Shown in pieces: positions 19,401 through 40,376 of a DNA stretch of 61,091 nucleotides. Location: NCBI GenBank assembly GCA_964581795.1, contig CAZOPW010000003.1:1-61091 (forward strand), written 5' to 3'. The stretch comes from an uncultured Thermoplasmatales archaeon (lineage in GTDB: Archaea; Thermoplasmatota; E2; DHVEG-1). The translations under genes and the position numbers were made by a program. The notes beneath the pieces are model-generated. The model was not told where the DNA came from and searched no databases. It saw nothing but the letters and a program-made list of their open reading frames with translations. Every line of letters starts with the position of its first letter. Positions within the stretch are counted from its first letter, which is position 1.

Positions 19401-20026
19401 ATTTTATCACCAAAACCACACCAGTTAATGTATAATTAATATTTCGGCTTTATTTTCTACATATAGGTCATAAATTAATACTTTGAGTTATAGAAAACTC
19501 ATACATTTTTTTTAAATTTATTTCTTCTGGATTCTGCTAATTTTTTTACCATATATGATTTGAAAAGTCTGTATTTACGATGTAATTAATTAAGTTATTA
19601 TGAACAAACATAGGTTAAAATTTTGCCTCTTCTCCAAATTTAGGTAAGGAAATCTAACGATTTCCTCCAGAAAGGATTAGAGGAAGAAAAATGTTGGTAA
19701 TTCTTTGAAAAACAACAATCAATCATTGGTCATAATGGGGATTAATTCAAACGGGATCTTTGAATCATCTCTTTTGATGGTAATATACGAATGGAAATAG
19801 GGCTGAAATGTCATTTTCTCGAAGAAAATACAACTACCTAAGAATAGAGAAGAATCAATATAATTAATTCAAAATAAAAAATTTAAATAAAAAAGAGGAA
19901 AAATTAGTTTACCTGCTATTAATGTGTATAATTCAAAAGTCCTATAAAAAAATTTATTTTTCATCACTGTCTTTCTCTAAAGCTTCTTCCTAAAGATTTT
20001 AATACTCGAAAATCTATTTTGGTTAC

Positions 20027-20344
20027 ATGATGGAAAAAAAGGATGCGGCTGAGGAGGTTACTACGTTTTTAAAACTTCCTGTATACACCCGATCTGGTGA
20101 TTATGTAGGACATATTCGTAATGTTTTTCTAGATATGGAACAAAAACGTGTAAGTAGTTTACTTGTAACAAATACGAATGCTTCAATTGTTGAAGGATCT
20201 GTCGATGTTGCAGTTCCATACCGATGGGTGAATGCAGTAGGAGATATTGTCATTTTATCATATTTTCCCGAACGAGTAACCACTCAGAAGAAGGAAGAAC
20301 CTACTGAAGAAGAAAATCCTGATGATATTGATATCATAGAATAA
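20027..20344 (+). CDS. PRC-barrel domain protein
   Basis: 105 aa. Pattern VYTRSGDYVGHIRNVFLD...VPYRWV is typical of PRC barrels. Acidic C-terminal tail. Confidence 0.6.
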   Translation: MMEKKDAAEEVTTFLKLPVYTRSGDYVGHIRNVFLDMEQKRVSSLLVTNTNASIVEGSVDVAVPYRWVNAVGDIVILSYFPERVTTQKKEEPTEEENPDDIDIIE

Positions 20345-20357: not shown

Positions 20358-20604
20358 GTTATTTTCTGATTTTTTATTCAACTCAATATATAGTTTTGAT
20401 TTCGCCTTCAATTTTTCTGAAACAACCACATTACGTTGATATGTTTTCTTTCAACTAAATAGAAATATTTTTATTCTTCTAAGGAGTTATAATCAATGGT
20501 AAAAAGTTTTAAAAGCAAATCCTTTTATATAATGAAGTTTATATTTTATTAATGGATGTTTGCCTATCTCAAAGATGTTGTTTCACCACAATTGTACAAC
20601 AATC

Positions 20605-20612
20605 TTTAAATA
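20605..20612 (+). promoter_or_regulatory. TATA-box-like element (TTTAAATA) upstream of envelope gene A1
   Basis: About 51 nt upstream of ATG 20663, with an AGGTGA SD-like element between. The spacing is about the same as for A2. Confidence 0.4.
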
Positions 20613-20662: not shown

Positions 20663-21676
20663 ATGGTCAAACGAAATGGACTGATAACAACAGGTGCACT
20701 TGTTTTACTACTGCTAAGTATTGCAATCATGGGTCCTGTTGTTTCTGCTGAGGATACGGCTACGACCGCAGATCAAACAGATCAGAATCCAAAACTGTTT
20801 AGCTTTAATTCTTACATTCAAATTTATTATGATACTGCTCCATTAAATGAAAATTTGCAGATTGATGAATCTAAGAACGTTCCGATTACCATCACATATA
20901 AAACGGATGTACCTTCTGACTTTTTGAGAATTTTGCCATGGCAATTGAGAAATATCTTACTATACGGTAGTATGATTGGTCCAATGCAACAAATTTCATT
21001 GGAAATATTAGATGAACCAGAATGGGCGGATATTACGCTTGCAAAAAAGGATATTTTAACAGATATTCCAGTTCAAGGAAGCCCTACTACGGAACAAACA
21101 AGTCTTATTCTTTCACCATATGAAGAAGCTCCTGCTCAACCTTATACGATTACACTTAGAGCATCTTGTGGCCAGATTGGCCGGGTTAATGGATTTAGCA
21201 CTGCAGTTGATATTGTATTTACTCCTTCATTCGTTCCGACAGTGACTATTGTTCCTGAAAGACCAACAAGAACGGTTGGACCTCGTGAATCTGTTAACTT
21301 CGAAATAAGAGTTAAAAATGAAGCGAATAAAAAAGCTCGAATTACTCCAAGACTCAATACATCTGCCCCAGATTGGAGTCCAACAATCAATCCGCCGTTC
21401 TTTGATGTCTTGCCAGGATCTGAAGAAAAATTTACTTTTTCAGTTTATACACCATATGATTTTGGTTGGCATAATGAAATCCAGTCATTTCAAATTGATT
21501 TCACAACTCGAATCTTTCCATTACAAGAAGATGCAGCTGTTGGAGGACCATATGCAATCTATCTTCGAATTAATAATTATGGATTCTCTACACCAGGATT
21601 TGAACTATTGCCAATACTTGCGGCTATTGGTATTGCGTTAATACTCGTAAGAAATAAGTATCTTGATAAAAAATAG
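20663..21676 (+). CDS. secreted envelope protein A1 with PGF-CTERM sorting signal
   Basis: N-terminal signal peptide (LVLLLLSIAIMGPVVSAED). It has an Ig/CARDB-like segment VNFEIRVKNEANKKARITP. C-terminus is STPGFELLPILAAIGIALILVRNKYLDKK. Paralog of 23583..24704. Confidence 0.8.
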   Translation: MVKRNGLITTGALVLLLLSIAIMGPVVSAEDTATTADQTDQNPKLFSFNSYIQIYYDTAPLNENLQIDESKNVPITITYKTDVPSDFLRILPWQLRNILLYGSMIGPMQQISLEILDEPEWADITLAKKDILTDIPVQGSPTTEQTSLILSPYEEAPAQPYTITLRASCGQIGRVNGFSTAVDIVFTPSFVPTVTIVPERPTRTVGPRESVNFEIRVKNEANKKARITPRLNTSAPDWSPTINPPFFDVLPGSEEKFTFSVYTPYDFGWHNEIQSFQIDFTTRIFPLQEDAAVGGPYAIYLRINNYGFSTPGFELLPILAAIGIALILVRNKYLDKK

Positions 21677-21717
21677 ATTAATTCAATTTCAAAAACAAAA
21701 ATATAGGGGAGTCATAA

Positions 21718-23451
21718 GTGCGCTTAAACCGATGTACAGTTATATTCATCTTATTGCTCTTTTCTTCTTTAGCATTAATTACACCAGTTTTAGCTCAAGA
21801 TGAAGAGGTGTCAGAAAATGCTGCTGAGATTAATGCAAGGATCATGGGGGATATCCCATCTATTAGAGTTACAGATTGGACTCAAATTAAACTAGAAGTC
21901 ACAGATGCATTTGGAATTGATTATAGGCAGCTCAGTGAACAAGTTCCTCGATTTATCATGGAGTTTCTTTGGCCATTAAATCCTTCGTTTCCTCAACCAG
22001 TAAAACGGTATCTTGGTCCAATGTCCATTCGTTTAATACCTGAGATTTACGACGGTAATGCGAATGGATGGCAATTACGGATGAAAACCTCAACAATTAA
22101 TAACACGTTATCAGGGGATAAACACGAGGTAACATTAGAGGTTTATGTTGATGATTCTTCCATTGATAATTCAGTTGTCGTTGGAATAAGATGTATTAGA
22201 TTGGACACTTTCGGCGATCCAATAGGTGAGTCTTGGATTTATGTTCCTGTAAAAGCATCTCCAACGAATTATATTAAAATGGAAACTCTTCAGGATAGTA
22301 GAAAAACTACTGCTCCAAAGACACTGGTTGATTTTAAGTTAGATATAAAAAATGAAGGATATTATAAGGACGTATTTGAATTTGAGATTGAGGAAGAAAA
22401 TGGGTTAATGGCTTTAATGAATCAACAAGCTGTCACTTTGCTTCCAGGGGAAACAAAACGGCTCACTCTTGAAATTTTAACACCTGAAAAATTATTTGAT
22501 CCGGGGACTCCAAACGAAATACAAATTTACGTTCGTTCAACTGGAAATACCACGAAAACACTTGTAGGAACACTTATTGTGATCACTCAAGGCGTTCATA
22601 TCTCACCACTTTTTGCAATCATTGCTATTCCAATTATTGTTTTGATAGTAGGTTTCTACATTGGTTTTGTATGGTATAAGAATAAAAAAGACCGCGAATT
22701 GTATGGAAAACCTAATAAACCATGGAATATCCCAGAAGAAAGTCAATATTTAAAAGAAATGAAGAAAAAGGATTCTGAGAAATATAATCAAGTTTTAGAC
22801 ATGATGAAGCAGGAATATGAATCTGCACTTCTTTGGTGGAAAAGTGAACAAAAACATAGTGAAGGAAAACAATCTTTTTCATTATCTGATAAATTTTCTC
22901 ACATTTTTTCAAAATCAAAAGAAGAAACTGAACGGCCCAAAGAGGAAACAAAAGAGGAAGCTGCTGAAAAAAAGAAAGAAGAAACGGAAAAATCAGTTAA
23001 AAAAAAGAGTAAACAACCCAAAAAAACAACGAAGAAAAAAGAAGAAGAGGAACCAAAAGTTGAGGAAGAAAAAAACGTAGAGAAAGAAAAAAGAAATCAA
23101 ACTGGTGAATCTTCAAAACAAAAAAAGGCTTCGCTATCTGATAAAGTAGTAACTGGATTAAAAAAATGGTTTACAGTTCCAAAAGAAGAAAAACAAAAAA
23201 AACAAAAACCTGAAAAAGAAACAAAAATAAGTGAAACAAAAGAATCAGATAGAGAATCTGCTACTGAAGAAAATGTTCAAAAGGAAAAACTGCCTGAGGA
23301 TGATTACGAAAAAGAACTCAATCAAATTGAGGAAGAACATCGAAAGAAAAGAGTCCGAAAACAAAAGGAACAAAAGCAATTAGAAAAACAAAAAACAATG
23401 AATAAAATTAAGCGTGCTCAGGAAAAACAGCGGCAAAAATTAAACAAGTAA
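21718..23451 (+). CDS. secreted, single-pass membrane envelope protein B1 with long K/E-rich cytoplasmic tail
   Basis: GTG start after AGGGGAG. It has a signal peptide (FILLLFSSLALITPVLAQDE), a CARDB/NEW3-like segment (DIKNEGYYKDVFEFEI...LLPGETKRLTLEILTPE) and a TM helix at about 22600-22680. A tail of about 255 aa follows. Paralog of 24701..25693. Confidence 0.8.
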   Translation: MRLNRCTVIFILLLFSSLALITPVLAQDEEVSENAAEINARIMGDIPSIRVTDWTQIKLEVTDAFGIDYRQLSEQVPRFIMEFLWPLNPSFPQPVKRYLGPMSIRLIPEIYDGNANGWQLRMKTSTINNTLSGDKHEVTLEVYVDDSSIDNSVVVGIRCIRLDTFGDPIGESWIYVPVKASPTNYIKMETLQDSRKTTAPKTLVDFKLDIKNEGYYKDVFEFEIEEENGLMALMNQQAVTLLPGETKRLTLEILTPEKLFDPGTPNEIQIYVRSTGNTTKTLVGTLIVITQGVHISPLFAIIAIPIIVLIVGFYIGFVWYKNKKDRELYGKPNKPWNIPEESQYLKEMKKKDSEKYNQVLDMMKQEYESALLWWKSEQKHSEGKQSFSLSDKFSHIFSKSKEETERPKEETKEEAAEKKKEETEKSVKKKSKQPKKTTKKKEEEEPKVEEEKNVEKEKRNQTGESSKQKKASLSDKVVTGLKKWFTVPKEEKQKKQKPEKETKISETKESDRESATEENVQKEKLPEDDYEKELNQIEEEHRKKRVRKQKEQKQLEKQKTMNKIKRAQEKQRQKLNK

Positions 23452-23461
23452 ATTAAACCTG

Positions 23462-23471
23462 TTTTTTTTTT
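23462..23471 (+). terminator. oligo-T tract (T10) after envelope gene B1
   Basis: It begins 11 nt after the B1 stop. Archaeal transcription terminates at oligo-T runs. Confidence 0.4.
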
Positions 23472-23522
23472 CATATAAATTTATTAAAATTTATAATATA
23501 TTTATTTTGATTTATTTAGAAA

Positions 23523-23530
23523 TATTTAAA
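23523..23530 (+). promoter_or_regulatory. TATA-box-like element (TATTTAAA) upstream of envelope gene A2
   Basis: About 53 nt upstream of the TTG start at 23583. GGAGGATTAAGGAGAGG lies between. Confidence 0.4.
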
Positions 23531-23582
23531 TTTGTTTTTTTCATTACAATCTCTAAATTGGGAGGATTAAGGAGAGGTAGTA

Positions 23583-24704
23583 TTGATTCAAAACAGGAAA
23601 TTAATTATAATTTCAGTAATTATTTTCTTACTACTCTTCCCTATATTGAATTCTGCTAGGGCAGAAGAGGATGTAAATATTTTCATTAAAGCATTCAGAT
23701 TTGGTTTAATGAATCAAAGATTTGATCAATACGTGGAATTTGAATATAATAATTCTTTGATTAATGAGAGTTTGCGTGTTGATCAATCACTTAATCTTCC
23801 GATTACATTGAAATATTGGACGAGTGTACCAGATTCATTGTGGACAATTGGTGTATGGGGATTTGGACTTTTAGATCCTATTCGAAGATATGCATTCATG
23901 GCTGCAAATAAAATAGTGTATGGAATGAGTATGCCCCAGCAATTTATTCAACTAAATATCACATCAAAACCATCCTGGCTCGAGTGTTATTTCACAAAAA
24001 ATAGATTTCCAATAAATTTTACAACATTTAATGATTCTAATAATGATCGAGGATCATTTCTATTTCCACAAAAACAAACTGGTAACCCTGGTTTTGCTAA
24101 AGAATGTTCAGATGACAATAAAAGCATTTTACGAACAAGCCTAATTATTTCGCCGTTAGCTGAGGCTCCTGCTCAAGAATACACAATAGATATAGAAGTG
24201 TATCTAGCCCCGCATGGAATGATTACTAAGGGAGTATACAAGGAATCAATAACGTTTACTCCTTCATTTTTTCCAAAAATTGATTTTTCAGTTAAAAAAC
24301 CAGTTCAACTAATTACACCTCAGCAACCTGTAAATTATCAAATTCAAGTTACAAATACTGCAAATAAGAAAATTAAAGTATTTCCAGTATTCAATAATCT
24401 TTCTTCCTTTCAGGGTGATATGAATCCAGAATTTCTTATTCTTAATGCAAACGAGTCATCTCAATTCTTCTTTTCCAAATTTACAGAAAAAGATTTTGGC
24501 TGGTATGACAAAACTAAAACATATCCTCTCAATTTTTATGTAACATTAGCACCATTCACAGATAATGAAATGTATGGCCCTTATTCAGTGAATGTAACAT
24601 TAAATACATACGGATTTTCAACTCCGGGTTATGAATCATATTTTCTTCTAATCAGTTTTTGTGTGATTATTTTTATAATGCGATTATTTGGGAGGAAAAA
24701 ATGA
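23583..24704 (+). CDS. secreted envelope protein A2 with PGF-CTERM-like (PGY) sorting signal
   Basis: TTG start after GGAGGATTAAGGAGAGG. Signal peptide present. Blocks shared with A1 include SPLAEAPAQEYTI, FTPSFFP, VNYQIQVTNTANKK and YGFSTPGYE, plus a hydrophobic and basic tail. Confidence 0.8.
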   Translation: MIQNRKLIIISVIIFLLLFPILNSARAEEDVNIFIKAFRFGLMNQRFDQYVEFEYNNSLINESLRVDQSLNLPITLKYWTSVPDSLWTIGVWGFGLLDPIRRYAFMAANKIVYGMSMPQQFIQLNITSKPSWLECYFTKNRFPINFTTFNDSNNDRGSFLFPQKQTGNPGFAKECSDDNKSILRTSLIISPLAEAPAQEYTIDIEVYLAPHGMITKGVYKESITFTPSFFPKIDFSVKKPVQLITPQQPVNYQIQVTNTANKKIKVFPVFNNLSSFQGDMNPEFLILNANESSQFFFSKFTEKDFGWYDKTKTYPLNFYVTLAPFTDNEMYGPYSVNVTLNTYGFSTPGYESYFLLISFCVIIFIMRLFGRKK

Positions 24705-25693
24705 TGAAAAATCTAAAAAGAATATTTATTGGTCTTATTCTACTATCATTTTTTATACTTCCTTCTGTCATAATTATAGATGCAGAAAAATTGGAACAAG
24801 CTGAAATCAATGCATATGTTCGTGGCGAATTACCTAGTATTCAGGTAAATGAATGGACTCCAATTAATTTAACAATTGAGAATAGGTTTGGCATTGATTG
24901 GAAAAAACTTCAAGAAAATGTATTGAAAGTTATTATTGAAGTATGGTGGCCATTAAATCCAGCTTTCCCTCAGCCAGTAAAACGGTTTTTAGGTCCTACC
25001 TCTTTGAAATTAACTGGTTTTGTTAATTCAGATAATAATGATGGATGGCATTTTGAATTTGATCCAGATTTATTCAATGGAAGTTATACCGGGGATTCAC
25101 ATAATCCTACGATGTTCGTTAAAGTTGATGATAATGCGATTAGTTACAATGAAACAGTGATTATTAATTGTACTCGTATAGATGCTCTGGGGATGAACTA
25201 TGGGTATTCCTGGATTTATTTACCATTAAAAGTCGCTCCTGAATCATATCTTTCAGTATCGAATTTAGAACAAAAAATAACTGTTACACCTAAATCATTG
25301 AATACAATTACATTTCACTTAACAAATGAAGGTTATTACAAAAACGTGTTTTATTTGAATACAAGCAGCTCAACTCAATTTTTTTACACTCAAATCCATG
25401 AACAATCAGCAGTTATTGAACCCGGAGAAACCCGTGAAGTGAAACTTAGTTTTCTAACACCTGAGAGATTCTATGATCTTGGCACCCCCCATACTATTAA
25501 TGTATTTGCTCGTCATTCACAAAACGATTCATTCGTTCATATTGGGTCTTTAACAGTGGTTACAAAAGGATTATTTTTATCTCCTTTATTCTTCATTGGT
25601 ATTCTAATATTAACGTTAATTATTTTGGTTAGTTTGATATTATTCATTTTATATCGCAGATACAAAAAAAGGTCTAAACTATCATTAATTTAA
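24701..25693 (+). CDS. secreted, single-pass membrane envelope protein B2 (no cytoplasmic tail)
   Basis: ATG at 24701 overlaps the A2 stop (ATGA) and follows GGGAGG. Blocks shared with B1 include WPLNPAFPQPVKRFLGP, SWIYLPLK, NEGYYKNVF and PGETREVKLSFLTPE. C-terminal TM helix plus YRRYKKRSK. Confidence 0.8.
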   Translation: MMKNLKRIFIGLILLSFFILPSVIIIDAEKLEQAEINAYVRGELPSIQVNEWTPINLTIENRFGIDWKKLQENVLKVIIEVWWPLNPAFPQPVKRFLGPTSLKLTGFVNSDNNDGWHFEFDPDLFNGSYTGDSHNPTMFVKVDDNAISYNETVIINCTRIDALGMNYGYSWIYLPLKVAPESYLSVSNLEQKITVTPKSLNTITFHLTNEGYYKNVFYLNTSSSTQFFYTQIHEQSAVIEPGETREVKLSFLTPERFYDLGTPHTINVFARHSQNDSFVHIGSLTVVTKGLFLSPLFFIGILILTLIILVSLILFILYRRYKKRSKLSLI

Positions 25694-25702
25694 TTGACAA
25701 GA

Positions 25703-25710
25703 TTTTTTTT
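25703..25710 (+). terminator. oligo-T tract (T8) after envelope gene B2
   Basis: It begins 10 nt after the B2 stop, in the convergent gap with the M50 protease gene. Confidence 0.35.
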
Positions 25711-27824: not shown

Positions 27825-28475
27825 TTAGATTTCAGCTTCAAAATCTTCAACTTCAGGTTGAAAATCATCGTATGAATCAATTTTACCTTTCACTTTATAG
27901 ATTTCACGAGTTAAAAGCCAATACACTAATGCTAACGCTCTTCTTCCTTTGTTATTTGTTGGAATGATTACGTCAACAAATTTCGTTTCATTATTTGTAT
28001 CGCATAATGCTACAACGGGGATTCCTACGTTTCGTGCTTCACGAAGTGCTTGCGCATCAGCTAATGGATCTGTTATTATCAGGACTTCAGGTTCTAAATA
28101 CCCTCGTGCGTTTGGATTTGTAAGTGTTCCTGGTCGAAATCGACCGGCTAACACCTGAATGTTTGTGTATTCACCTAGTTTCCGAATTGGTTGTTGCCCA
28201 TATTGACGAACCGAAACAACAAGAACATTCTCTGGTTTGAACTTGGAGATGAACTGTGCAGCTACACGGACACGCTCATCTGTTTTGTTCACATCGATGA
28301 TGTATAAACCATCATTTCGAACTTTGTAAATGTATTTGGTCATATCAGATGTTTTCTGCCGTGTTCCAATGTGAACACCTGCTGTCATATAGGTTTCTTC
28401 AGAAGTAATTTGATCAGCTGCTACTTCCTCTGTAGTTTCCTTGGTTTGCTCTTCTGTTTCTGCCATGTTTTGCAT
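27825..28475 (-). CDS. rps2: 30S ribosomal protein S2 (uS2)
   Basis: AGVHIGT, the DGLYIIDV-type block and the IPVVALCDTN block. Acidic N-terminal extension. Confidence 0.93.
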   Translation of the reverse strand: MQNMAETEEQTKETTEEVAADQITSEETYMTAGVHIGTRQKTSDMTKYIYKVRNDGLYIIDVNKTDERVRVAAQFISKFKPENVLVVSVRQYGQQPIRKLGEYTNIQVLAGRFRPGTLTNPNARGYLEPEVLIITDPLADAQALREARNVGIPVVALCDTNNETKFVDVIIPTNNKGRRALALVYWLLTREIYKVKGKIDSYDDFQPEVEDFEAEI

Positions 28476-28503
28476 CCTTCTTTTTCACAATCTTTTCTTT
28501 TTC

Positions 28504-28677
28504 TTATTGATCGCGTTTAACTGTTATCGGGATTGCCCCTTCTTTGAATTCAAGCATTGCGATGTCAATAGGGAAAATGATTCCTTTTGGAATCTTAATT
28601 AAGGATGGTGCACCCATTGATATTTGCAATGCGCGTGCACCTATAATCCGTGCTTTTTCAAAGCGAGTATATTTCAA
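28504..28677 (-). CDS. rpoK: DNA-directed RNA polymerase subunit K (Rpo6)
   Basis: 57-aa ORF below the track cutoff, with a TTG start. Hand translation is (M)[56 protein letters not shown]. It matches the Rpb6/RpoK core. Confidence 0.88.
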
Positions 28678-28748
28678 ATATATCGACCAACTATGCTTTT
28701 CTAGTTAACTGAACCACCAAATACGGATAACGTTTAAAAACATTACCC

Positions 28749-28970
28749 TTACCAACTCTGTTGTTGCTCCTGTAAAACTTCAGATAAACCAGCTTGCCTA
28801 CTTCCAAATTCATCTAAAGCCAGTTGCATATCAATTGTGATATCACGTAACAATTGATCTAAATGTTCACTACGAAATTCTTTTACCCCATCTGCATCTG
28901 AAAATATTTTTCCAACATAATCATTGTCCCTTCGATGAATTTCAATATCGTATAATGTCTCTTCTTCCAT
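28749..28970 (-). CDS. small conserved protein (73 aa), paralog of 17241..17399
   Basis: The ORF-track protein core YDIEIHRRDNDYVGKIFSDADGVKEFRSEHLDQLLRDITIDMQLAL aligns gaplessly with the 52-aa ORF at 17241. Confidence 0.6.
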   Translation of the reverse strand: MEEETLYDIEIHRRDNDYVGKIFSDADGVKEFRSEHLDQLLRDITIDMQLALDEFGSRQAGLSEVLQEQQQSW

Positions 28971-29071
28971 GGACTTATCTCCCTCTAAGCAATTTCATAC
29001 CCATCCTTGTTATAAAAACGTTTTGAACAAATATGTTTTCTCTTTTATTTTTCTTTTCATCTCTCATATTC

Positions 29072-29536
29072 TTACAGCATACGATTGATAAGTGTATTGA
29101 TTTCTTTTGACCGATATCCAAGTGCTCCATTGTTAACAAATGATCGTTTGATTCCTTCATATCCTTTTACTGGAGGATGAAGACGAAATACTGGTTTTAC
29201 TTCAGGTATCTCAGTTAATTGCACTTTACCAGAAGCAATATCTTTTGCTAATGATTGAAACGTTTTGTAGGATGAAACATTTTGTAAGAACTTTTCTGTG
29301 AGCTCTGTATCCCCTGGTCCTTTCCCTCGTTTTTCAAGTAACTGGGTGATGGTTTCATCGTTGACTTCTCCCCAGGTTACGTAATCTTTTGCGACCTGTA
29401 ACATTCCTTTCACATTTTTATTTTCAGGGAGAAGGACACAATGATTCGCCCGAGTTAAATTCAAGAGTTCAAGGGTTTTTTTGATTTTCGGATGAACATT
29501 CACATGTCCCCGAATTCGAACAGCTGCATATGCCAT
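29072..29536 (-). CDS. rpl30: 50S ribosomal protein L30 (uL30)
   Basis: MAYAAVRIRG start (ATG 29536; the track start at 29545 is TTG). It is the last gene of the conserved cluster. Confidence 0.93.
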   Translation of the reverse strand: MAYAAVRIRGHVNVHPKIKKTLELLNLTRANHCVLLPENKNVKGMLQVAKDYVTWGEVNDETITQLLEKRGKGPGDTELTEKFLQNVSSYKTFQSLAKDIASGKVQLTEIPEVKPVFRLHPPVKGYEGIKRSFVNNGALGYRSKEINTLINRML

Positions 29537-29541
29537 ACGTC

Positions 29542-30291
29542 TCAAGACACCTCCTCAGTTACCGTTGTTTCTTCATTTTCCTCTGGTTCTGTTTCCCCAG
29601 ATACAATACCAATGCGTTGTACTGCAGTAGGAAGCACTCGCATTTCAGTATTTTTCTTTAAAGCGTTAAAGACAGCTTTTGCATAATTAACTGTCGTCCG
29701 TGTTTGTCCATCGGTAAACGCCCAACAATCTTTGATACCAGCAAGTGATAAGATTTTCTTTGCGACTTCACCGGTAGCCAAACCGATTCCTTGCGGTGCT
29801 GGTTTGAACGTAATTTCAACAGAACCACTTTTTCCTGTGATTGCAAACGGAACGGTATGTGCCGTACCACAGCCACATTCCCATGAGCCACAACCACGTC
29901 GAATTTCAATGATTTCAAGTTTTGCATTTTCAATTGCTTTTCGGATACTAGCTCCTACTTCCTTTCCTTTTGCTTGTCCAAGGCCAACATACCCATCTTT
30001 GTTTCCAACTACTACAGTAATAACGAATTTTACACGTCGACCTGAATCAGTCATCCGCTGTACCATATTCACATCAAGAACTTCATCAGCAAGATCAGGA
30101 AGTAAAATATCAACAACTTGTGGTTCGCGAAGAGGAAGTCCTGATTGTAATGCATCATGCATCGTCGTAATATTTCCTTTTTTCACTTCTATACCAAGTT
30201 TCGTTTTTGGACTCCATTCCACAATCATAGCTTCTTTACTTCGTCCTTTCTTCCGTCTGCCACCTCGACCTCGACTTCTTCTCGCAGCCAT
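29542..30291 (-). CDS. rps5: 30S ribosomal protein S5 (uS5)
   Basis: S5 dsRBD and C-terminal domain blocks ([17 protein letters not shown]). Cluster position supports the call. Confidence 0.95.
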
Positions 30292-30803
30292 TATTCACTG
30301 TCACCTCCAGTGATTTTCTTTTTAATCTTAATTACATCTTGTTTTATTTTTTCATCGATATGTTTTCCATGTAATCGATCTTCTTCAGGGATCATTTCTT
30401 CACCATACGGGCAATCGATTCCCGCATCAACTACTCCTTTCAATGCCGCAAAGACTTTACTTCCTTTCACTGGGACTTGCCGTCCGATATCAAGGACACC
30501 TGAGGTTACTCCATCTTTTTTCGCTTGGGATCCAGCAAGTAAACCAGTAAGATATGCAGCAGGTACATTGGAACAGGAGTGTTTCCAATTGTATTGTTTT
30601 GTTAAATCAGATCCTAATGCTGAAGCAACGACTTTATCTCCTTCTTCAGCGTATTCAATGAATTGTACTCGAATATTTTTTAAAGAACGGCGAACGACTA
30701 TTCGATGTTCACCTGATTTAAGTAATGCTAATCGATGACGATAATCTGTTTTCCCTTCTCGTCTCCTTCGTGGTTTAATCCGATATCGTGGTCCTTGATT
30801 CAT
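30291..30803 (-). CDS. rpl18: 50S ribosomal protein L18 (uL18)
   Basis: [17 protein letters not shown] start. Cluster position supports the call. Confidence 0.95.
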
Positions 30804-31264
30804 TATTGTTCCTCCTTCTGTATGACCCCATCAGCGATCATATGGGATTTCATATGACGGCGACTTCGAAATTCACCACCTTTTGCTTTCAAATAATATC
30901 GTCGATAAATTGTTGGAGTAATTACTTCTTCACTTCGTAATTCTTTGAGTAACGATCGAAGTGGCCGAATGGTTTTAATCCATCGTCGTTTCCGTGGAAA
31001 CCGTGCGTATTTCGCTCCTTTCCGTGACCCATGACCGCGACGTCTTCCTTTTTGTTTTTGGTTCATCACGTATCGTTTCCTTCCTTTGGAAATGCCTATT
31101 TTTTGTTTTGATTGAATGGCATCACCTTTGATTAACACTCGAATATCATCTTTGGTAACTGCTTGAGCGATTTCATCTAATCGATCCTGATCCATCCACA
31201 CGCGGTTTTTCCCACATTTAAGGATGGATGCGGCCATTCTTCGTTGATTCCTAAGATCAGTCAT
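30803..31264 (-). CDS. rpl19e: 50S ribosomal protein L19e
   Basis: LRNQRRMAASILKCGKNRVW start. Basic protein. Confidence 0.95.
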   Translation of the reverse strand: MTDLRNQRRMAASILKCGKNRVWMDQDRLDEIAQAVTKDDIRVLIKGDAIQSKQKIGISKGRKRYVMNQKQKGRRRGHGSRKGAKYARFPRKRRWIKTIRPLRSLLKELRSEEVITPTIYRRYYLKAKGGEFRSRRHMKSHMIADGVIQKEEQ

Positions 31265-31287
31265 ACCTCGTAACCCTCTTTATCTTA

Positions 31288-32073
31288 TTATTTATTCAAC
31301 AGTCGGATATCTAATTCCTTTGCTTTTTCAGTAATTGCAACACGTTTTTTCGTTCCAACTGTGGATCCAATACGTGCTGCTTGCTTTTCAGCATCAATTT
31401 TTTCTAAATCTGAAACATTATATACTAGTATTTCTTCAAAACCGGATGGATGACGTCCTCGGACATGTTTTGGACCTCGAAATCCAACACGAACTTGTGG
31501 TAATCGATATTTTTTATTCATTCGCATTTTCGAAGTGATTCCATCTGGTTTATGCCAGTTTTTTGGAACCCGTTTATAACGAAACCATTCTTGGCGAAGG
31601 AAATGCGGTGTCTTTTTCTTTTTCTCTTTTCGAACTGAGAGAAAATGATGGTCATCTTTAGAAAGTGATGGTTTCTTTTTGACTATGTATCCTTCAGGTG
31701 TTTCAGTTAGTTCCTTTTCTTTTTTCTCTGGTTTCGTTTCTTTTTTAACAGTGAGTTTGGTTTCTTTTTTTACTTCTTTTTCCCTTTTAGGTTCTTTTGG
31801 TTCTGTTGCCGGTTGTTTTTGTTTTTCTTCAGTTTTCTTCGGTGTTTTTGATTTCGGTTTGGCTTTTGGTGCTTTTTTACCTTCACCAAGTTGATCTTTA
31901 ATTGTAGTTGCAACAGAATCACTAACGCCATTCACTTTACATAAGTCTTCAATTGAAGCCTCTTGAATCTTTTTCGTACTGTCAAAGCCTGCTTCAATGA
32001 TTGCTTCGGCTTTTACTTTACCAATACCTTTCAGTGAGGTGAGTTTCTTTAAGATATCTTCTTTCTCAGCCAT
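31288..32073 (-). CDS. rpl32e: 50S ribosomal protein L32e with N-terminal (HhH)2 module and K-rich linker
   Basis: The C-terminal ~130 aa is the L32e core (FLRQEWFRYKRV...WHKPDGITSKMR). The N-terminal ~65 aa is LTSLKGIGKVKAEAIIEAGF...EDLCKVNGVS. About 65 aa of K/E/P linker lies between them. Confidence 0.9.
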   Translation of the reverse strand: MAEKEDILKKLTSLKGIGKVKAEAIIEAGFDSTKKIQEASIEDLCKVNGVSDSVATTIKDQLGEGKKAPKAKPKSKTPKKTEEKQKQPATEPKEPKREKEVKKETKLTVKKETKPEKKEKELTETPEGYIVKKKPSLSKDDHHFLSVRKEKKKKTPHFLRQEWFRYKRVPKNWHKPDGITSKMRMNKKYRLPQVRVGFRGPKHVRGRHPSGFEEILVYNVSDLEKIDAEKQAARIGSTVGTKKRVAITEKAKELDIRLLNK

Positions 32074-32075
32074 GC

Positions 32076-32618
32076 TTATACACCGCCTCTGCTAATCCGG
32101 TAAATTCCATCTTGAAAAACTCTGATGTCTCGACGTTTTACTGAAGTTGCTCGTTCAATGTTTGCAACAGTTTGCCCTACTTTTTCTTTGTTTGTCCCTT
32201 TTACGGTGATATCATCGCCTTTTGCTTCAACAGTGACACCATCTAAAATGAGTGCTTTTCGAGGTGATCGCTCACCAAGAAAGTTTTGAATAACAAACGT
32301 GTTTCCTTCAACATTTGTTTTGATTGGAAAGTGAGAATATACGGTCTTCATCTTATATTCAAATCCTTCTGTTACACCATGAATCATGTTGTTAATGTGA
32401 GCGACAAAAGTGCCAAGTAACGCTTTATGTTCCCGTCGAAATTTAAAGCACTGAATACTGATTTTACCATCTTTTACAAAGAATTTGAAATCAGGATGAG
32501 AGAATATTCTCGTTAACTCTCCATTCTCTCCAGAAATATGAAGTGTAGTATCCTCATATGATGCTGTAATTGCATCAGGTAGTGAAATGTCATGTTTGAT
32601 CTTTGCTTCTTTCGCCAT
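32076..32618 (-). CDS. rpl6: 50S ribosomal protein L6 (uL6)
   Basis: Two-domain L6 pattern. Cluster position supports the call. Confidence 0.95.
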   Translation of the reverse strand: MAKEAKIKHDISLPDAITASYEDTTLHISGENGELTRIFSHPDFKFFVKDGKISIQCFKFRREHKALLGTFVAHINNMIHGVTEGFEYKMKTVYSHFPIKTNVEGNTFVIQNFLGERSPRKALILDGVTVEAKGDDITVKGTNKEKVGQTVANIERATSVKRRDIRVFQDGIYRISRGGV

Positions 32619-32641
32619 CGTTTTTCACCTTTTCATTGATT

Positions 32642-33031
32642 TTAATAAATATATGCAAGGACTTTCCCACCAATACCCTGTTTTTTTGCTTCATTATGAG
32701 AAAGAACACCATTGGTGGTGGTTAGAATCAACAATCCAAAGTCACGAGCTGGTAGATATCGTGCTTCCCATTTCTCTAAGTCTTCTCTTTTTACAGGATA
32801 TCGTGGTTTGATAACGCCACAATTATTTATGTTTCCTTTTAACGTCACTTCAAATGCACCTGCTTTTCCATCATCGATGAATTCAAATTCACTGATATAT
32901 CCTTTTTCTCGGAGTAAATTAAGAATGCCACCAATTAATTTAGAAGATGGTTGAATACGGCAGACACCTTTTCCTCGGTGTTCAGCGTTTTTCATTAATG
33001 AAAGTGCATTTGCTAATGGATCATTTAACAT
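32642..33031 (-). CDS. rps8: 30S ribosomal protein S8 (uS8)
   Basis: [17 protein letters not shown] start. Confidence 0.95.
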
Positions 33032-33048
33032 GTAATCGTCAATCCTCC

Positions 33049-33204
33049 TTACGAGTATTTTTTAAACCCCATTTCTTCAGCTTTTTCTCTGAAGCATTGT
33101 CGACAAATATGAAGACCGTACGCACGAATAAGACCGCGTTTTCGTCCGCATCGTTCACAACCATGAACTCGTCCATACTCTCGCTTCTTCTCTTTTATTT
33201 TCAT
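33049..33204 (-). CDS. rps14: 30S ribosomal protein S14, zinc-binding type Z (uS14)
   Basis: 51-aa ORF below the track cutoff. Hand translation is [51 protein letters not shown]. It contains CxxC...CxxC. Its ATG overlaps the rpl5 stop (TAATG). Confidence 0.92.
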
Positions 33205-33731
33205 TATTCAATCACCTTCACGTCAAATGTATCTGAAATATAGTTCATTGCTTCCTCTCTGCTCACTTGATGCTTATGAGGAACTTTTCGTTGTTTTACC
33301 CGTCTCTTTTTGATTCGATACCCCGGTTTTTCCATGGTTATACAGATGTCCATACCAAAAATACCAATATCTGGATCATATTTTTGATCCTTAAACAAGG
33401 TATGATCTGGAATGCCAAATGAAAGATTACCTTGGTCATCAAAAGCATAATCAGCAATCCGGTTTTCACGAGTATCCCATGCTTTTTTCAAAAAATCAAT
33501 AGCATCAGAACCTCGTAAGGTAACTTTACATCCAATAGGCATTCGTTTCCGAATACCAAATTCTCTGTTGGTAATGGTTGAAAGGGTTTGCACGGGTTTA
33601 TGATGTGTGATGTTTTGAAGCACAGATTCAGCTTTTTTTAATCGTTCCCCTGCTTCTCCGACACCAATGTTGACCGTGACTTTCTCAATTTGTGGTTTAG
33701 TCATTGGATTCTGCTTTGCTTTTGCACTCAT
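33204..33731 (-). CDS. rpl5: 50S ribosomal protein L5 (uL5)
   Basis: L5 family blocks. Cluster position supports the call. Confidence 0.95.
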
Positions 33732-34450
33732 TGAACTTTCACCTCAGGGGTTTTGATCACAGGTTTTGTTTTCCCTATTGGAAAGACGTATTGTTCAAGT
33801 GTCATAAACGGTTGGTCACCAGTCATTTTCGCAACATTTGGTTTTGATGATTTAATCACAGAGATTTCATCAAGGGTTGCCATTTCCCCAACGTGGCTTC
33901 CACCAATGATAAATGAAATTGTGCCTTTATCACGAGGGTATACATCAGTAACACTGTGGTCTTTCAATTTCATTTTTAACACGTCACCAACATGATATGA
34001 TTCTTTTTCTGCAATCATATTGGTTCCATCATGAAAATTAATCTGTGTTTTATTTTTCTTCAACGTGCTTTTCTTTTCAATACGACGTAATTTCCATTCA
34101 GCATCAGCTGAGGAAATTGGAACTAAGGCTAGATTCCCCCGTTTATTGTAGACAAGTCGATAATATTTCTTAGCGGTAGGAATTGAGATGATATCCATTA
34201 ATCCAACAGGGAATCGTAAGTCTCTTCGAATGATACCATCAACAAGGATATTGCCTTGACTAAGGATTTGTCGTGCTTCCCGACGAGTATCACAAAGATG
34301 TAAATAATCACGAATCAAAACACCGAGTGGAATCGACTGATTACCAGAATGTGGTCCTGCTGATGGACGTATTGTCCAAGTTTTTTCCTTTCGGTGTAAT
34401 TGGAGAGTACGAGGTGAATTTAATCGTTTCATATGATGATTGCTGCTCAT
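33728..34450 (-). CDS. rps4e: 30S ribosomal protein S4e
   Basis: HMKRLNSPR start. S4 and KOW-like domains. Confidence 0.95.
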   Translation of the reverse strand: MSSNHHMKRLNSPRTLQLHRKEKTWTIRPSAGPHSGNQSIPLGVLIRDYLHLCDTRREARQILSQGNILVDGIIRRDLRFPVGLMDIISIPTAKKYYRLVYNKRGNLALVPISSADAEWKLRRIEKKSTLKKNKTQINFHDGTNMIAEKESYHVGDVLKMKLKDHSVTDVYPRDKGTISFIIGGSHVGEMATLDEISVIKSSKPNVAKMTGDQPFMTLEQYVFPIGKTKPVIKTPEVKVQ

Positions 34451-35217
34451 TTTTTCTCCTCCTCTTCATCTTTTTGTGTTTTTCCCTCTGTTTTCTTTTT
34501 TGCCTGTTTAGATGTATTTTGCGATTTTTTTGGTTTTTCAGATGATTCTTTTGAAGGCTCTTCTTTTTTCTTCTGTTTTTGACTTTGTTTTTTTGCTGAT
34601 TGTTTCTTTTCTTTACTTTCTTCAGTTTTTTTATCTTGTTTTTCTTCTGATTTAGGTTCTTTTTTCTTTGGTTCTTCCTTGGTTTCTGAAGATTTCTCTG
34701 AAGATTTAGAAATTTCTTCAACTGGTGTTTCCTCTGTTTCTTCCTCTTGACCCGCTTCTTCTTCCTCGCGTTTTCGTCGTTCCTCTTCTTCTTCGCGCTC
34801 TTTTTCCAGTTCTTTGATCTGATCACTTGCTTCCTGTTCAATTTCCTTTTTCGCTTCAGAAGATAATCCTTCTTCAAGGCGTTGGCGTCTCCACTTATCC
34901 GTTAGATTAAGTTTCGTGATGAGAAGATTACTAGGATGAACCGCTTTTGCTACTTGTTTTCCATCAGCTTTAGTAACAGTTATACCTTCGACTTCAACGA
35001 GATGTTTTTTCAAATGAACAGAGCTAACTTTATTCTCATGACCTTTGAACGCACCACGCATAACCTTCACAGTATCACCAACAACGACAGGCATCCGTCT
35101 TTTATCATATTTTAATAACAGATTTTCTTCTAAATGAGCACCAATCTGTTTTCTTCTTTGATGTAATGGTGCGTTGAAAAACGCCTTCCTTTGTTTTCGT
35201 GCTTTACTTGATTTCAT
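34447..35217 (-). CDS. rpl24: 50S ribosomal protein L24 (uL24) with ~135-aa K/E-rich C-terminal extension
   Basis: The N-terminal ~118 aa is the KOW-containing L24 core (VVVGDTVKVMRGAFKGHENKV). The remainder is low-complexity E/K/S sequence. Confidence 0.92.
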   Translation of the reverse strand: MKSSKARKQRKAFFNAPLHQRRKQIGAHLEENLLLKYDKRRMPVVVGDTVKVMRGAFKGHENKVSSVHLKKHLVEVEGITVTKADGKQVAKAVHPSNLLITKLNLTDKWRRQRLEEGLSSEAKKEIEQEASDQIKELEKEREEEEERRKREEEEAGQEEETEETPVEEISKSSEKSSETKEEPKKKEPKSEEKQDKKTEESKEKKQSAKKQSQKQKKKEEPSKESSEKPKKSQNTSKQAKKKTEGKTQKDEEEEKK

Positions 35218-35237
35218 AGGTCATTCACTCAATTATC

Positions 35238-35636
35238 TTACACAATTATTGATGCATTCGCTGCAATCCGGGGCCATCGTTCAGCAGCCTCCAGTGCAAC
35301 AGGTCCTTTTATCATAGACCCTTTTGTTTCACCAGTTTCGGTCACAATAACCGCTGCGTTATCTTCGAATTGTACCATGGTTCCATCTGATCGGCGGAAT
35401 GGCCGTTTTTGTCGAACAATCACTGCTTTCAGTAACTGACGTCGCATATCCGCAGCTCCTTTTTTGACACTGATAATGACGAGATCTCCTACACCAGCTT
35501 GTGGGTATCGACGATGAGTCCCCTTCAACTTTGGTGTAGCTACGATTTCAACGATTTTTGCTCCTGTATTGTCAATGCATTCCAACCGAGCACCGGTTGG
35601 TAATCCTCTCATTGTTCTCCCAGCGATTCCTTTCAT
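35238..35636 (-). CDS. rpl14: 50S ribosomal protein L14 (uL14)
   Basis: Start taken at [13 protein letters not shown] (ATG 35636). The longer track ORF would overlap rps17. Confidence 0.95.
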
Positions 35637-35649
35637 ATCTTCTTCTCCA

Positions 35650-35988
35650 TCATAACTTTTCAATCGCCACAAATGAAACACTTTTACTCAGAGGGCGACA
35701 TTCTGCAATACGGACTTTATCACCTGGTTCCACTTCTAGACATGGTGGACAGTGAGCCGAATACATTGATGTCCGTTTCTCATAACGTTCATATTTTGGT
35801 ACAAGATGCATGTATTCACGCTTGACAAGAATGGTATGAGTCATTTTATTTGATGATACAACCCCAGTAATAATTTGTCCTCTCACTGATAATTTCCCAT
35901 GAAATGGGCAATGTTGATCAGTACATGTTTTTTCAGGCGGGGTTACATTAATCCCAATGTTTCGTACCTCGGTTGTTTTTTCAGCCAT
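35650..35988 (-). CDS. rps17: 30S ribosomal protein S17 (uS17)
   Basis: [13 protein letters not shown] block. Cluster position supports the call. Confidence 0.95.
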
Positions 35989-35997
35989 ATGCTTTTT

Positions 35998-36261
35998 TCA
36001 CCTTGCTTTTTTTATCCGTTCTTCAGGTCGATACATGATCTTTGATCCATGTATTCGAATTGTTTTTTCAGGTAATGTTACCTGAAAGATTGCTGTTTTT
36101 TTTTCAATTTTTTTAATTGTATTATTGATATCGATAAGGAAGAGATGTTTTGTTTCATCGATGATGATTCCTCGTTTTCCAATCCAGGTTGGATCGGTAC
36201 AGTGTTCAATGATGACAGAACATCCAATGAACTCTTCTTTGTTTGGAGGAATCTGTTTCAT
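35998..36261 (-). CDS. rnp1: RNase P protein component 1 (Rpp29/Pop4)
   Basis: 87 aa. The Sm-like GKRGIIIDETKHLFLID block and the conserved position between SUI1 and rps17 support the call. Confidence 0.85.
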   Translation of the reverse strand: MKQIPPNKEEFIGCSVIIEHCTDPTWIGKRGIIIDETKHLFLIDINNTIKKIEKKTAIFQVTLPEKTIRIHGSKIMYRPEERIKKAR

Positions 36262-36310
36262 ATCTATTCCTCATCAGATGCGAATGTAATTTATTATTGA
36301 TAGGGAATTG

Positions 36311-36610
36311 TTACGTTACTTCAACGATAAATCCCATATCTTCAAGTGTTTCTTTTACTTTCGACCGGTGGTCCCCTTGTAATTCAATTTTTCCGTCTTT
36401 GATGGTTCCACCGCTTGCACATTTTTTCTTTAATTTCGTTATTAATGAATCTAGATCAAGTTCATTTGGGTTGATACCATCAACGATGGTCATCATTTTA
36501 CCATATCTTCGTTTGTCAACTGTGATTTCGATTTTCTGCTGCTCTCTTGCAATGTCTTCACAGACACACAATTCTTTTGGAAGACCACATTTTGGACATA
36601 TTTCACTCAT
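36311..36610 (-). CDS. translation initiation factor aSUI1 (eIF1 homolog)
   Basis: N-terminal [13 protein letters not shown] zinc knuckle and the SUI1 core [13 protein letters not shown]...[16 protein letters not shown]. Confidence 0.9.
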
Positions 36611-36811
36611 TTATTGCTCTCCTTCCTCCCGCATTATTGTTAATAAACGGGCGATGGATGTTCGTAACTGCCTGATCTTTCCGGGCGAGGGAGGTGATCC
36701 ACCCATAGCAGCTACACCTCGTTCGTGCATTAATTCACGTTTTAATTCTTCGAGTTTCTCAATTCTTTCATCAGGAGTGAATTCACGGATTTCTTTTGCT
36801 TTTAACACCAT
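36611..36811 (-). CDS. rpl29: 50S ribosomal protein L29 (uL29)
   Basis: 66 aa helical protein. Cluster position supports the call. Confidence 0.93.
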   Translation of the reverse strand: MVLKAKEIREFTPDERIEKLEELKRELMHERGVAAMGGSPPSPGKIRQLRTSIARLLTIMREEGEQ

Positions 36812-36830
36812 TTATTTTCACCCATTTTTT

Positions 36831-37739: not shown

Positions 37740-38185
37740 TACTCTACCTCTTCAATGATTATTTCAACATTCGTTGTCATTTTATTTTTATCAGTAGCCC
37801 GACCTTGCGCTCGAGGCATGAAACCACGAATGGTTCGTCCTCTATAGGCTGACATATGTTTGATGCGCATGTTCTCTACATCAAATCCTTTATATTCTGC
37901 ATTGTTCTCTGCATTTTTCACTATCTTTAACAGATATGTCGCTGCTTTTTGAGGAAATTTTCCAGGACCAGTACCTTTTTGATGACTGATTTTCCGTTTA
38001 TGGTAAATAGCAGGGACTGCTCGTTTCAAAGCAATAACTTCTTCTAAATACGTTTTTGCAGCTTCTACCTTCATTCCTCGGAGCGCATAAGCTAAGTTTT
38101 TCGCATCTTTTGGTGAGCAATGCAGCTCATACCCATATGCTTTTGCAGTTTTATCCGGATCTGATTCAGTTGAATATCTTTGCAT
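37739..38185 (-). CDS. rpl22: 50S ribosomal protein L22 (uL22)
   Basis: L22 family pattern. Cluster position supports the call. Confidence 0.95.
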   Translation of the reverse strand: MQRYSTESDPDKTAKAYGYELHCSPKDAKNLAYALRGMKVEAAKTYLEEVIALKRAVPAIYHKRKISHQKGTGPGKFPQKAATYLLKIVKNAENNAEYKGFDVENMRIKHMSAYRGRTIRGFMPRAQGRATDKNKMTTNVEIIIEEVE

Positions 38186-38191
38186 ATATCA

Positions 38192-38626: not shown

Positions 38627-38628
38627 GT

Positions 38629-39339: not shown

Positions 39340-39352
39340 GTTGTTTTCACCT

Positions 39353-39610
39353 TTAGAACACACCTATTCTCATGCCTATATCTTCAGCATCATAATCTGG
39401 AGTAAATCTGACGATGGCATGTTTTCCATTTTTTGAAATTTTTGTGTTAACATGTTCAACTTCAACATCAAATAATTGTTCAATTGCTTTCTTTATCGTT
39501 TGTTTAGTTGCAGTTCTTCGAACGATAAATTCAAGTGCATTATTATCTTCCATGAGATTCATGGTTTTTTCAGTGACATATGGATGAAAGATGATGTTAT
39601 ATGGATCCAT
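39353..39610 (-). CDS. rpl23: 50S ribosomal protein L23 (uL23)
   Basis: 85 aa. L23 pattern. Cluster position supports the call. Confidence 0.95.
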   Translation of the reverse strand: MDPYNIIFHPYVTEKTMNLMEDNNALEFIVRRTATKQTIKKAIEQLFDVEVEHVNTKISKNGKHAIVRFTPDYDAEDIGMRIGVF

Positions 39611-40371: not shown

Positions 40372-40376
40372 GGTGT

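Follow-up and report, generated by a model that had tools for sequence, protein, structure and literature searches.

A stretch of 61,091 nucleotides (nt) from an uncultured Thermoplasmatales archaeon (Thermoplasmatota; E2; DHVEG-1; contig CAZOPW010000003.1 of assembly GCA_964581795.1), analysed as a whole and called the window here, carries four consecutive plus-strand genes that form two copies of one pair, A followed by B, each predicted to encode a protein of the cell surface. The source genome was covered by these 61 kb, and its relatives by locus DNA with flanks of about 17 kb (numbers beginning with L denote such loci, and those beginning with P denote proteins). An initial annotation had proposed that the four genes are two A-B cassettes, and a check of the open reading frames (ORFs) agrees with it at the coordinates below, where the T-runs and the Shine-Dalgarno (SD)-like motif were read directly from the sequence.

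20663..21676, plus strand: A1, ORF of 337 amino acids (aa) with an ATG start; signal peptide at about aa 1-29, immunoglobulin (Ig)-like domain 1 at about 47-190 and Ig-like domain 2 at about 194-307
21581-21673, plus strand: A1 tail (aa 307-337), GFSTPGFE with a hydrophobic helix and a basic end
21705..21711, plus strand: SD-like AGGGGAG, 6 nt before the GTG of B1
21718..23451, plus strand: B1, ORF of 577 aa with a GTG start; signal peptide at about aa 1-26, Ig-like domains at about 38-180 and 186-293, transmembrane helix at about 297-321, cytoplasmic tail at nt 22681-23448
23462..23471, plus strand: T10 run after the B1 stop, archaeal terminator-like, closing cassette 1
23583..24704, plus strand: A2, 373 aa with a TTG start; architecture as in A1, with about 35 added residues in domain 1 and a PGYE variant of the tail
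24701..25693, plus strand: B2, 330 aa with an ATG start; B1-like ectodomain, transmembrane helix and short basic cytoplasmic tail
25703..25710, plus strand: T8 run after the B2 stop, inside the 48-nt gap ahead of a convergent M50 gene

The junctions between A and B are tight, as had been proposed. The TGA stop of A2 (24702-24704) overlaps the ATG of B2 (24701-24703) as ATGA, with GGGAGG upstream, and A1 is separated from B1 by a spacer of 41 nt that holds AGGGGAG and is devoid of a T-run. The ORF list gives the start of B2 as a TTG at 24659 inside A2 (344 aa); however, the close strain L021 and the protein P0117 favour the ATG at 24701. Each cassette also has its own TATA-like box about 50 nt upstream and a T-run downstream, in agreement with the earlier description, and the promoter-like regions are kept in relatives.

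The relationship between the two cassettes is apparent from their protein sequences. Full-length alignment gives 28% identity for A1 and A2 (E 9e-49), alignment of the ectodomains gives 40% for B1 and B2 (E 2e-77), and all ten motif blocks that had been listed for the two pairs recur in these alignments. On this evidence the paralogy of A1 with A2 and of B1 with B2 is far beyond chance. A more distant relationship exists between A and B themselves. Comparison of their profiles with hhalign gives a probability of 96% (E 2.6e-9) for A 147-310 against B 137-295, a homologous stretch of about 150 residues that comprises the final third of domain 1 and the whole of domain 2. By this profile comparison, A and B are distant paralogs of the same two-Ig architecture.

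Both families had been regarded as uncharacterised, and this still stands. Scans of all four proteins against Pfam, NCBIfam and PHROGs found no family above cutoff, and the A and B family profiles had no significant match among the PDB sequences. The 'CARDB/NEW3-like' label given earlier to B has sub-threshold matches as its sole basis. The one family that comes near, again below threshold, is the NCBIfam choice-of-anchor T (choice_anch_T, NF041740), a model of 259 positions with a cutoff of 70 bits. A1 scores 24.4 bits and B1 28.8-29.8 bits (24-30 bits for the window proteins), and members scored singly reach up to 38.4 bits. The weak alignment is seen in 65 of 77 A members and 43 of 50 B members, with best E-values of 1.9e-11 for the 77 A members and 4e-10 for 48 distant members, and it runs through the second Ig domain alone, at about positions 146-243 of the model (its C-terminal 95 or so). 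Since the scores lie far under 70 bits and a single domain is aligned, the sequences point to remote homology at the level of a domain and not to membership. The A family likewise has a 'choice of anchor', namely a PGF-like tail or none. In the literature on choice-of-anchor T, on Heimdall-CTERM, on PGF-CTERM and archaeosortases in Thermoplasmatota, and on Thermoplasmatota S-layers, no description of the A/B family was found.

Homologues were collected for A1 (n=116) and for B1 (n=47, mostly 470-590 aa), and a profile search with A gave 797 clusters (50% identity) at E<=1e-3, with 108 at E<=1e-30. All named homologues of A and B come from Thermoplasmata/Thermoplasmatota metagenome-assembled genomes (MAGs), one record being labelled Methanobacteriota. 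The A-B operon appears to be Thermoplasmatota-specific and vertically inherited.

The adjacency of A and B is conserved in these relatives. When the loci were examined from the A side, all 17 that include downstream DNA had B as the next gene in the same orientation, except for the L004/L005 lineage. When metagenome contigs were examined from the B side, A was directly upstream in 27/27 loci with enough upstream DNA. The two sets share a few contigs (for example, L026 is L010) and together amount to about 40 distinct A-B loci, so the proposed linkage holds in all the Thermoplasmatota loci that include enough DNA, bar one anchorless A-A lineage. The spacing is either 0-50 nt or an overlap of 4 nt, and L006, L009 and L010 have the A2/B2-type overlap in their second cassettes.

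Duplication likewise concerns the pair as a unit in several lineages, as had been suggested for the window. The arrangement A-B/A-B is found in the window, in the close strain L021, in L006 and in L009, and L010 has at least A-B/A-B/A. L002 and L007 have a single cassette and no cassette 2, although their synteny with the window is otherwise kept. One MAG is the source of both L007 and L008, and hence that genome has a second A-B pair elsewhere. In neighbour-joining trees built from 19 cassettes, A and B fall into matching clades, and their pairwise distances correlate with r 0.95. This congruence argues that the two genes are duplicated and passed on together, with no exchange of partners between cassettes.

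The A family also has members that stand without B. In L004 (10001-11861) and also in L005, two anchorless A-type paralogs (33% identical) lie in tandem without B, and in L004 they are surrounded by genes for secreted proteins (Peptidase_C25, PKD, NosD beta-helix and CarboxypepD_reg). In the exhaustive profile search, about one quarter of the representative clusters are anchorless, with a length of about 297-300 aa that ends just before the tail motif (P0109, P0111 and P0112, for example). Because these proteins stop at that point, the tail behaves as a separable module. Separately, an extra, shorter A-like gene is present upstream of the PRC-barrel gene in three loci, in the order A'-PRC-A-B (L018 1392-2270, L025 1634-2395 and L041 219-977).

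The secretion and membrane signals that had been described are present in all four proteins as signal-peptide-like N-termini and C-terminal membrane helices. AlphaFold2 (AF2) models built with the family alignments reach a predicted local distance difference test score (pLDDT) of 88.5 for A1 and 84.1 for the B1 ectodomain. The two models share a common plan, which includes an N-terminal hydrophobic helix, a short disordered linker, two beta-sandwiches and a C-terminal helix into which the final strand of domain 2 passes directly. The ectodomains of A and B are each about 270-320 aa long. A Foldseek search against PDB and BFVD found generic tandem Ig/ASH/PapD-like matches with TM-scores of 0.2-0.4 (HYDIN, the SPD-2 domain of CEP192, the integrin alpha-chain Ig-like domain, CfaB, RbmA and phage Ig domains), with no specific homologue and no sign of a viral origin in these databases.

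The tail of A consists of GFS(T/L/A)PGFE, 13-17 hydrophobic residues and a K/R cluster. A1 ends in NNYGFSTPGFE-LLPILAAIGIALILV-RNKYLDKK, and A2 ends in YGFSTPGYE-SYFLLISFCVIIFIM-RLFGRKK. The residues G307, F308, S309, P311, G312 and F313 are invariant in the alignment of the A1-class subset and at least 90% conserved across 77 A sequences. The tail has the tripartite layout of an archaeosortase signal (a PGF motif, about 15-20 hydrophobic residues and a basic cluster), and in this respect the earlier description of it as PGF-CTERM-type stands; the canonical PGF-CTERM model, however, is not reached, and the closest model is Heimdall-CTERM. With TIGR04126 (curated cutoff 24.5 bits), neither A1 nor A2 was matched at E<=1, and 10 of 77 A members had matches at E<0.1 (best 5.7e-4; one example scores 13.9 bits). 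The Pfam PGF-CTERM model (PF18204) matched 5 of 48 distant members, all of them weakly. Heimdall-CTERM (NF045529, cutoff 24) matched 62/77 A members at E<0.1 and Loki-CTERM (NF033507, cutoff 19.9) matched 30/77. A1 has 19.3 bits with Heimdall-CTERM against the cutoff of 24, and A2, with its PGYE, has no match. A few members are at or above a curated cutoff, namely P0045 (24.2) and the A protein of L019 (28.0) for Heimdall-CTERM and P0034 (20.2) for Loki-CTERM. All named A members are Thermoplasmatota, and none is from Asgard archaea.

B is anchored differently and, from its sequence, is a type-I membrane protein with a plain transmembrane helix. B1-class proteins carry a conserved juxtamembrane motif, GKPxKPWxIPEE..YLxELK..MMxxEYxSAxLWY, after which the tail continues for about 200 aa as a region of low complexity, rich in K and E (isoelectric point 9.4), up to a conserved extreme C-terminus, IKxxQxKQxxK. 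Such an arrangement hints at a partner that binds the tail in the cytoplasm. B2-class proteins end after a short basic stretch, without the long B1-type tail.

The intergenic regions of the locus hold further conserved elements, listed here with the PRC-barrel gene that bounds the first of them.

20027..20344, plus strand: PRC-barrel gene, 105 aa, cytoplasmic, with an acidic C-terminus; Pfam PF05239, E 4.7e-11
20509..20551, plus strand: 43-nt non-coding block TTAAAAGCAAATCCTTTTATATAATGAAGTTTATATTTTATTA with two TATA-like boxes, between the PRC-barrel gene and A1
20593..20612, plus strand: cassette-1 promoter element TGTACAACAA-NN-TTTAAATA, with the palindrome TGTACA upstream of the TATA box
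23522..23578, plus strand: cassette-2 promoter region, with TATA-like ATATTTAAAT (23522-23531) and SD-like GGAGAGGT (23571-23578)

The TATA box of cassette 1, TTTAAATA, lies at 20605-20612, which is 51 nt before the ATG of A1. The complete element occurs once in the 61-kb window, and it precedes the first A gene in 14 genome or contig loci and in 23/23 metagenome loci that cover the region, even where protein identity falls to about 35%. It is longer than the usual transcription factor B recognition element, and TGTACAACAA is probably a dedicated transcription-factor site that abuts the TATA box. The 43-nt block is identical at 43/43 positions in the window, L002, L006 and L007, the A proteins of which are 73-77% identical, and degenerate copies are found in L010, L011 and L013. 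An Rfam scan found one tRNA in the window and no match within the conserved intergenic blocks, the 43-nt block included. In cassette 2, the TATA box TTTAAAT lies at 23525-23531, about 52 nt before the TTG of A2. The sequences GATTTATTTAGAAATATTTAAAT and GGGAGG..GGAGAG of this region are conserved in L006, and the TGTACAACAA element was looked for in the cassette-2 promoter region and is absent from it.

The two cassettes also differ in composition and in their variation between strains. The N-X-S/T sequons in the ectodomains number 1 in A1 and 2 in B1 against 9 in A2 and 6 in B2, and for A2 the 9 observed compare with 3.8+-1.8 expected. Per 100 aa this amounts to 2.3-2.8 sequons in cassette 2 against 0.36-0.74 in cassette 1 and 0.60 in the window proteome, and the split into a sequon-poor and a sequon-rich cassette is repeated in other loci. 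The GC content is 0.36 in cassette 1 and 0.31 in cassette 2. In comparison with L021, nt identity is 99.6% for A1, 98.4% for B1, 90.3% for A2 and 96.3% for B2, and 99.5-100% for the flanking genes. The mismatches fall in sharp-edged patches at 23601-24100 (A2 domain 1), 21701-22100 (B1 domain 1) and 24501-25000 (the A2 C-terminus and B2 domain 1). As read from these alignments, recombination has produced a mosaic, mainly within the membrane-distal domains, and such a pattern would be expected of an exposed surface under biotic pressure. A2 and its L021 counterpart are 87.9% identical in aa, with a synonymous divergence (dS) of 0.24 and a nonsynonymous to synonymous ratio (dN/dS) of 0.31. Positive selection was considered as the main driver of the divergence of cassette 2 and was rejected on this ratio of about 0.3; rather, such a ratio with a raised dS points to recombination. 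The initial annotation had suggested that the two isoforms could be alternative coats or receptors, and this proposal gains indirect support from the sequons, lower GC, patchy presence and strain mosaicism of cassette 2. Since cassette 2 varies between near-identical strains, the A-B pair is a good candidate for an exposed coat or receptor.

In about 15 of 20 loci, and in about 20 metagenome loci as well, A is preceded by the PRC-barrel gene in the same orientation. Further upstream, divergent genes for a pyridoxal-phosphate (PLP) decarboxylase and a phosphoribosyltransferase (PRTase) show synteny equal to that of the PRC-barrel gene. The interval of about 300 nt between the PRC-barrel gene and A1 holds a terminator-like T-run and a promoter. 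The PRC-barrel gene was rejected as a member of the A-B operon on account of this separate promoter and terminator and because its synteny does not exceed that of the unrelated genes for PLP-decarboxylase and PRTase. Downstream, the M50 and TraB-family genes previously noted on the minus strand are borne out by a Peptidase_M50 match and, for TraB, by precomputed Pfam assignments on orthologues. They are part of a wider synteny block and are missing beside A-B in L001, L008, L015, L016 and L018-L020; as many loci have thus lost them and keep A-B, they were rejected as functional partners.

Further observations concern the surroundings of the locus. In the more divergent loci, namely L015 (5495-8800) and, with equivalent genes, L016, L018 and L020, a protein of about 1100 aa is encoded convergently with B in place of M50. 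It is anchored at its N-terminus, has a CarboxypepD_reg-like domain and ends in a C-terminal part with five transmembrane segments. In L021 (2857-5183), two extra genes (224 aa, and 550 aa with NosD/beta-helix) lie between the PLP-decarboxylase and PRC-barrel genes. The counterpart in the window is a 626-bp gap (19401-20026), and this is a strain-specific indel beside a surface-protein locus. A long archaeal ribosomal-protein cluster occupies 27825-41372 on the minus strand, a short way downstream of the locus (uS2, uL30, uS5, uL18, eL19, eL32, uL6, uS8, uL5, eS4 and others), and its genes do not differ recognisably in codon usage from the other genes of the window.

These observations could best be accommodated, tentatively and at somewhat less than even confidence, if A and B are co-produced and assembled into a hetero-oligomeric coat or scaffold that lies low on the outer face of the membrane. 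The contact of A with B, lipid anchoring, abundance and lattice formation are what we infer here. An archaeosortase-like enzyme would cleave A at PGF and leave it lipid-anchored; A and B would be made at about 1:1 and would touch each other on the outer membrane face; and the B1 tail would link the assembled proteins with a partner in the cytoplasm. Cassette 1, with its deeply conserved dedicated promoter, few sequons and near-invariance between strains, may be the constitutive housekeeping form. Cassette 2, which has a promoter of its own, may be an alternative form that varies between strains and is probably N-glycosylated at many sites; its membrane-distal domains would be swapped by recombination, as for a surface that faces viruses or other biotic selection.

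Several points weigh against such a coat. The ectodomains, at the length given above, are small beside known S-layer proteins, and a membrane anchor on each of the two partners sets them apart from SlaA/SlaB. The near lack of sequons in cassette 1 would be uncommon among S-layer glycoproteins of archaea, and the dN/dS of cassette 2 gives no indication of positive selection. A1 and A2 fall below every curated sorting-signal cutoff, and no archaeosortase or exosortase was found among the polytopic membrane proteins (at least 5 hydrophobic segments) of the window and the relatives' loci, which are instead M50, PAP2, UbiA, Na/H exchanger, lycopene cyclase and similar proteins. Hence, with no archaeosortase gene in this DNA and the canonical PGF-CTERM model not reached, the lipid anchoring of A by archaeosortase-type processing is a step that we infer. 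The large anchorless A subfamily and the A-A pairs imply that A-type proteins can function without B, and the paralogy of A and B implies that their adjacency may have begun as a plain tandem duplication. Codon adaptation, measured against the 21 ribosomal-protein genes of the window, shows no sign of high expression; as the ribosomal genes themselves are not high-ranked and are spread across the whole ranking, this measure is uninformative on expression.

The last points but one bear on the explanation that A and B are non-interacting, tandem paralogous membrane glycoproteins, which are adjacent through duplication and a shared promoter and act each alone. The homology of about 150 residues between A and B is in keeping with this, as are the A-A pairs or extra single A genes without B in L004, L018, L025 and L041. 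We nevertheless regard it as quite unlikely, since about 40 distinct loci, with identity as low as about 35%, adhere strictly to one order, strand and spacing, distinct and complementary anchor types are kept by A and B throughout, and A and B are duplicated together every time, the trees showing no exchange of partners. Alternatively, A-B may be a surface adhesin or receptor pair in place of a structural coat. The conserved motifs of the ectodomains would bind a ligand such as a detrital polymer, another cell or a mineral surface, the cytoplasmic tail of B1 would pass on or stabilise this contact much as in an integrin, and cassette 2 would be a second specificity. Such a role would suit the small ectodomains, the long and conserved cytoplasmic tail of B1, and motifs such as WPLNPxFPQPVxRFLG, NEGYYKDVF, DFGWHN and FTPSFxPT, the conservation of which is unusual in a coat protein. 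The top structural matches include Ig-like domains of integrin alpha chains and Ig domains of adhesins or pilins, though these are generic, and the anchorless A relatives in L004 stand among secreted peptidases (C25) and PKD and beta-helix proteins. However, a recognisable ligand-binding domain is absent from the pair, TM-scores of just 0.25-0.39 indicate a likeness to Ig folds in general, and a housekeeping structural role is a better fit for a single-copy core pair with a fixed chromosomal site and a dedicated invariant promoter. A binding pair of this kind is considered unlikely, though less so than the other alternatives to the coat.

Regulated proteolysis or signalling would place the emphasis on the cytoplasmic side. 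B would be the substrate and A a co-receptor, with the neighbouring M50 protease freeing the B1 tail, or the tail would dock the neighbouring PRC-barrel (CdpB-like) protein and thereby connect the envelope to cell division. The M50 gene is convergent just downstream in the window and in many loci, a PRC-barrel gene is upstream in most loci, and the B1 tail is basic and the PRC-barrel C-terminus acidic. Furthermore, PRC-barrel proteins such as CdpB and CdvA act in archaeal cell division (bioRxiv 10.1101/2023.03.28.534520). On the other hand, M50 and TraB are absent beside A-B in the many loci named above, the PRC-barrel gene is linked no more tightly than PLP-decarboxylase/PRTase and has its own terminator and promoter, PRC-barrel genes are commonly found beside translation genes, and B2-class proteins have no such tail. 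We hold this explanation to be highly improbable. A bolder form of the coat reading, which we would call very unlikely, takes A-B as the main envelope in a large clade of uncultured Thermoplasmatota. This would be a minimal, membrane-hugging, two-component lattice of a lipid-anchored subunit and a transmembrane paralog, with its tail tied to cytoplasmic machinery, possibly the neighbouring PRC-barrel (CdpB-like) division protein. Its expression would be under a clade-wide TGTACA-type regulator site, and cassette 2 would serve as a glycan-shielded, recombining coat for virus escape.

These Thermoplasmatota of sediments and hydrothermal sites exist as MAGs alone, and their cell envelope has, to our knowledge, no experimental description. 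As a core, single-locus and clade-wide pair, A-B offers a specific candidate for the exposed surface and hence also for virus receptors, cell-cell contact and substrate capture. The tail of A would add a PGF-like variant of the sorting signal outside haloarchaea, methanogens and Asgard archaea, and the pair would add a case of a presumed archaeosortase substrate hard-wired to a transmembrane paralog. The invariant promoter element and the strain mosaicism of cassette 2 are entry points for studies of regulation and of the virus-host arms race in metagenomes. The locus may thus be useful for archaeal envelope and virus-host research, and it is mechanistically unsurprising on present evidence.

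Among known systems, archaeal S-layers combine Ig-like arrays, a PGF/transmembrane/basic signal, a divergent distal domain and multiple alternative genes for S-layer proteins (PMC8640222). A1 and B1 share with this class secretion, membrane anchoring and Ig-like domains, as judged from their signal peptides and AF2 models. The Haloferax volcanii csg protein and the ArtA substrates likewise have a Sec signal peptide, an array of Ig-like beta-sandwiches and a PGF-hydrophobic-basic C-terminus, and here too the distal domain is the most divergent and several alternative copies occur in some genomes (PMC8640222). The strain mosaic of cassette 2 thus has a parallel in the divergent distal domain and the several alternative S-layer protein genes that are discussed for haloarchaea. 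A differs from csg in having two Ig domains instead of six and in lacking the Thr-rich O-glycosylated spacer, so that Ig2 runs straight into GFSTPGFE. It differs from csg and the ArtA substrates in general in that the PGF-CTERM hidden Markov model is not reached, a transmembrane paralog, B, is its obligate neighbour, and no sequence homology was detected between them.

Similarly, the SlaA/SlaB systems of Sulfolobales and Nitrososphaera have two adjacent, co-transcribed envelope genes, the products of which form a single surface structure and one of which is transmembrane-anchored, and Ig-like domains are reported for the Nitrososphaera pair (PMC8640222). In contrast, A and B are both small, membrane-anchored and mutually homologous, they have no sequence similarity to SlaA/SlaB, and the A1 and B1 models contain neither a large canopy subunit nor a coiled-coil stalk. 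With integrin alpha/beta there is a likeness by analogy only, namely two type-I proteins with membrane-proximal Ig-like domains and one cytoplasmic tail; the Ig fold is generic (TM-scores of 0.25-0.3), and A-B has no beta-propeller, beta-I or VWA domain and no homology to integrins. By analogy, then, A-B is most like a PGF-anchored archaeal S-layer glycoprotein in its presumed working and a two-component S-layer in its gene organisation. It belongs to the known kind of Ig-domain archaeal surface proteins with an archaeosortase-type signal, and what is new is the obligate transmembrane paralog as partner, the duplication as a unit and the dedicated promoter that is kept across the clade.

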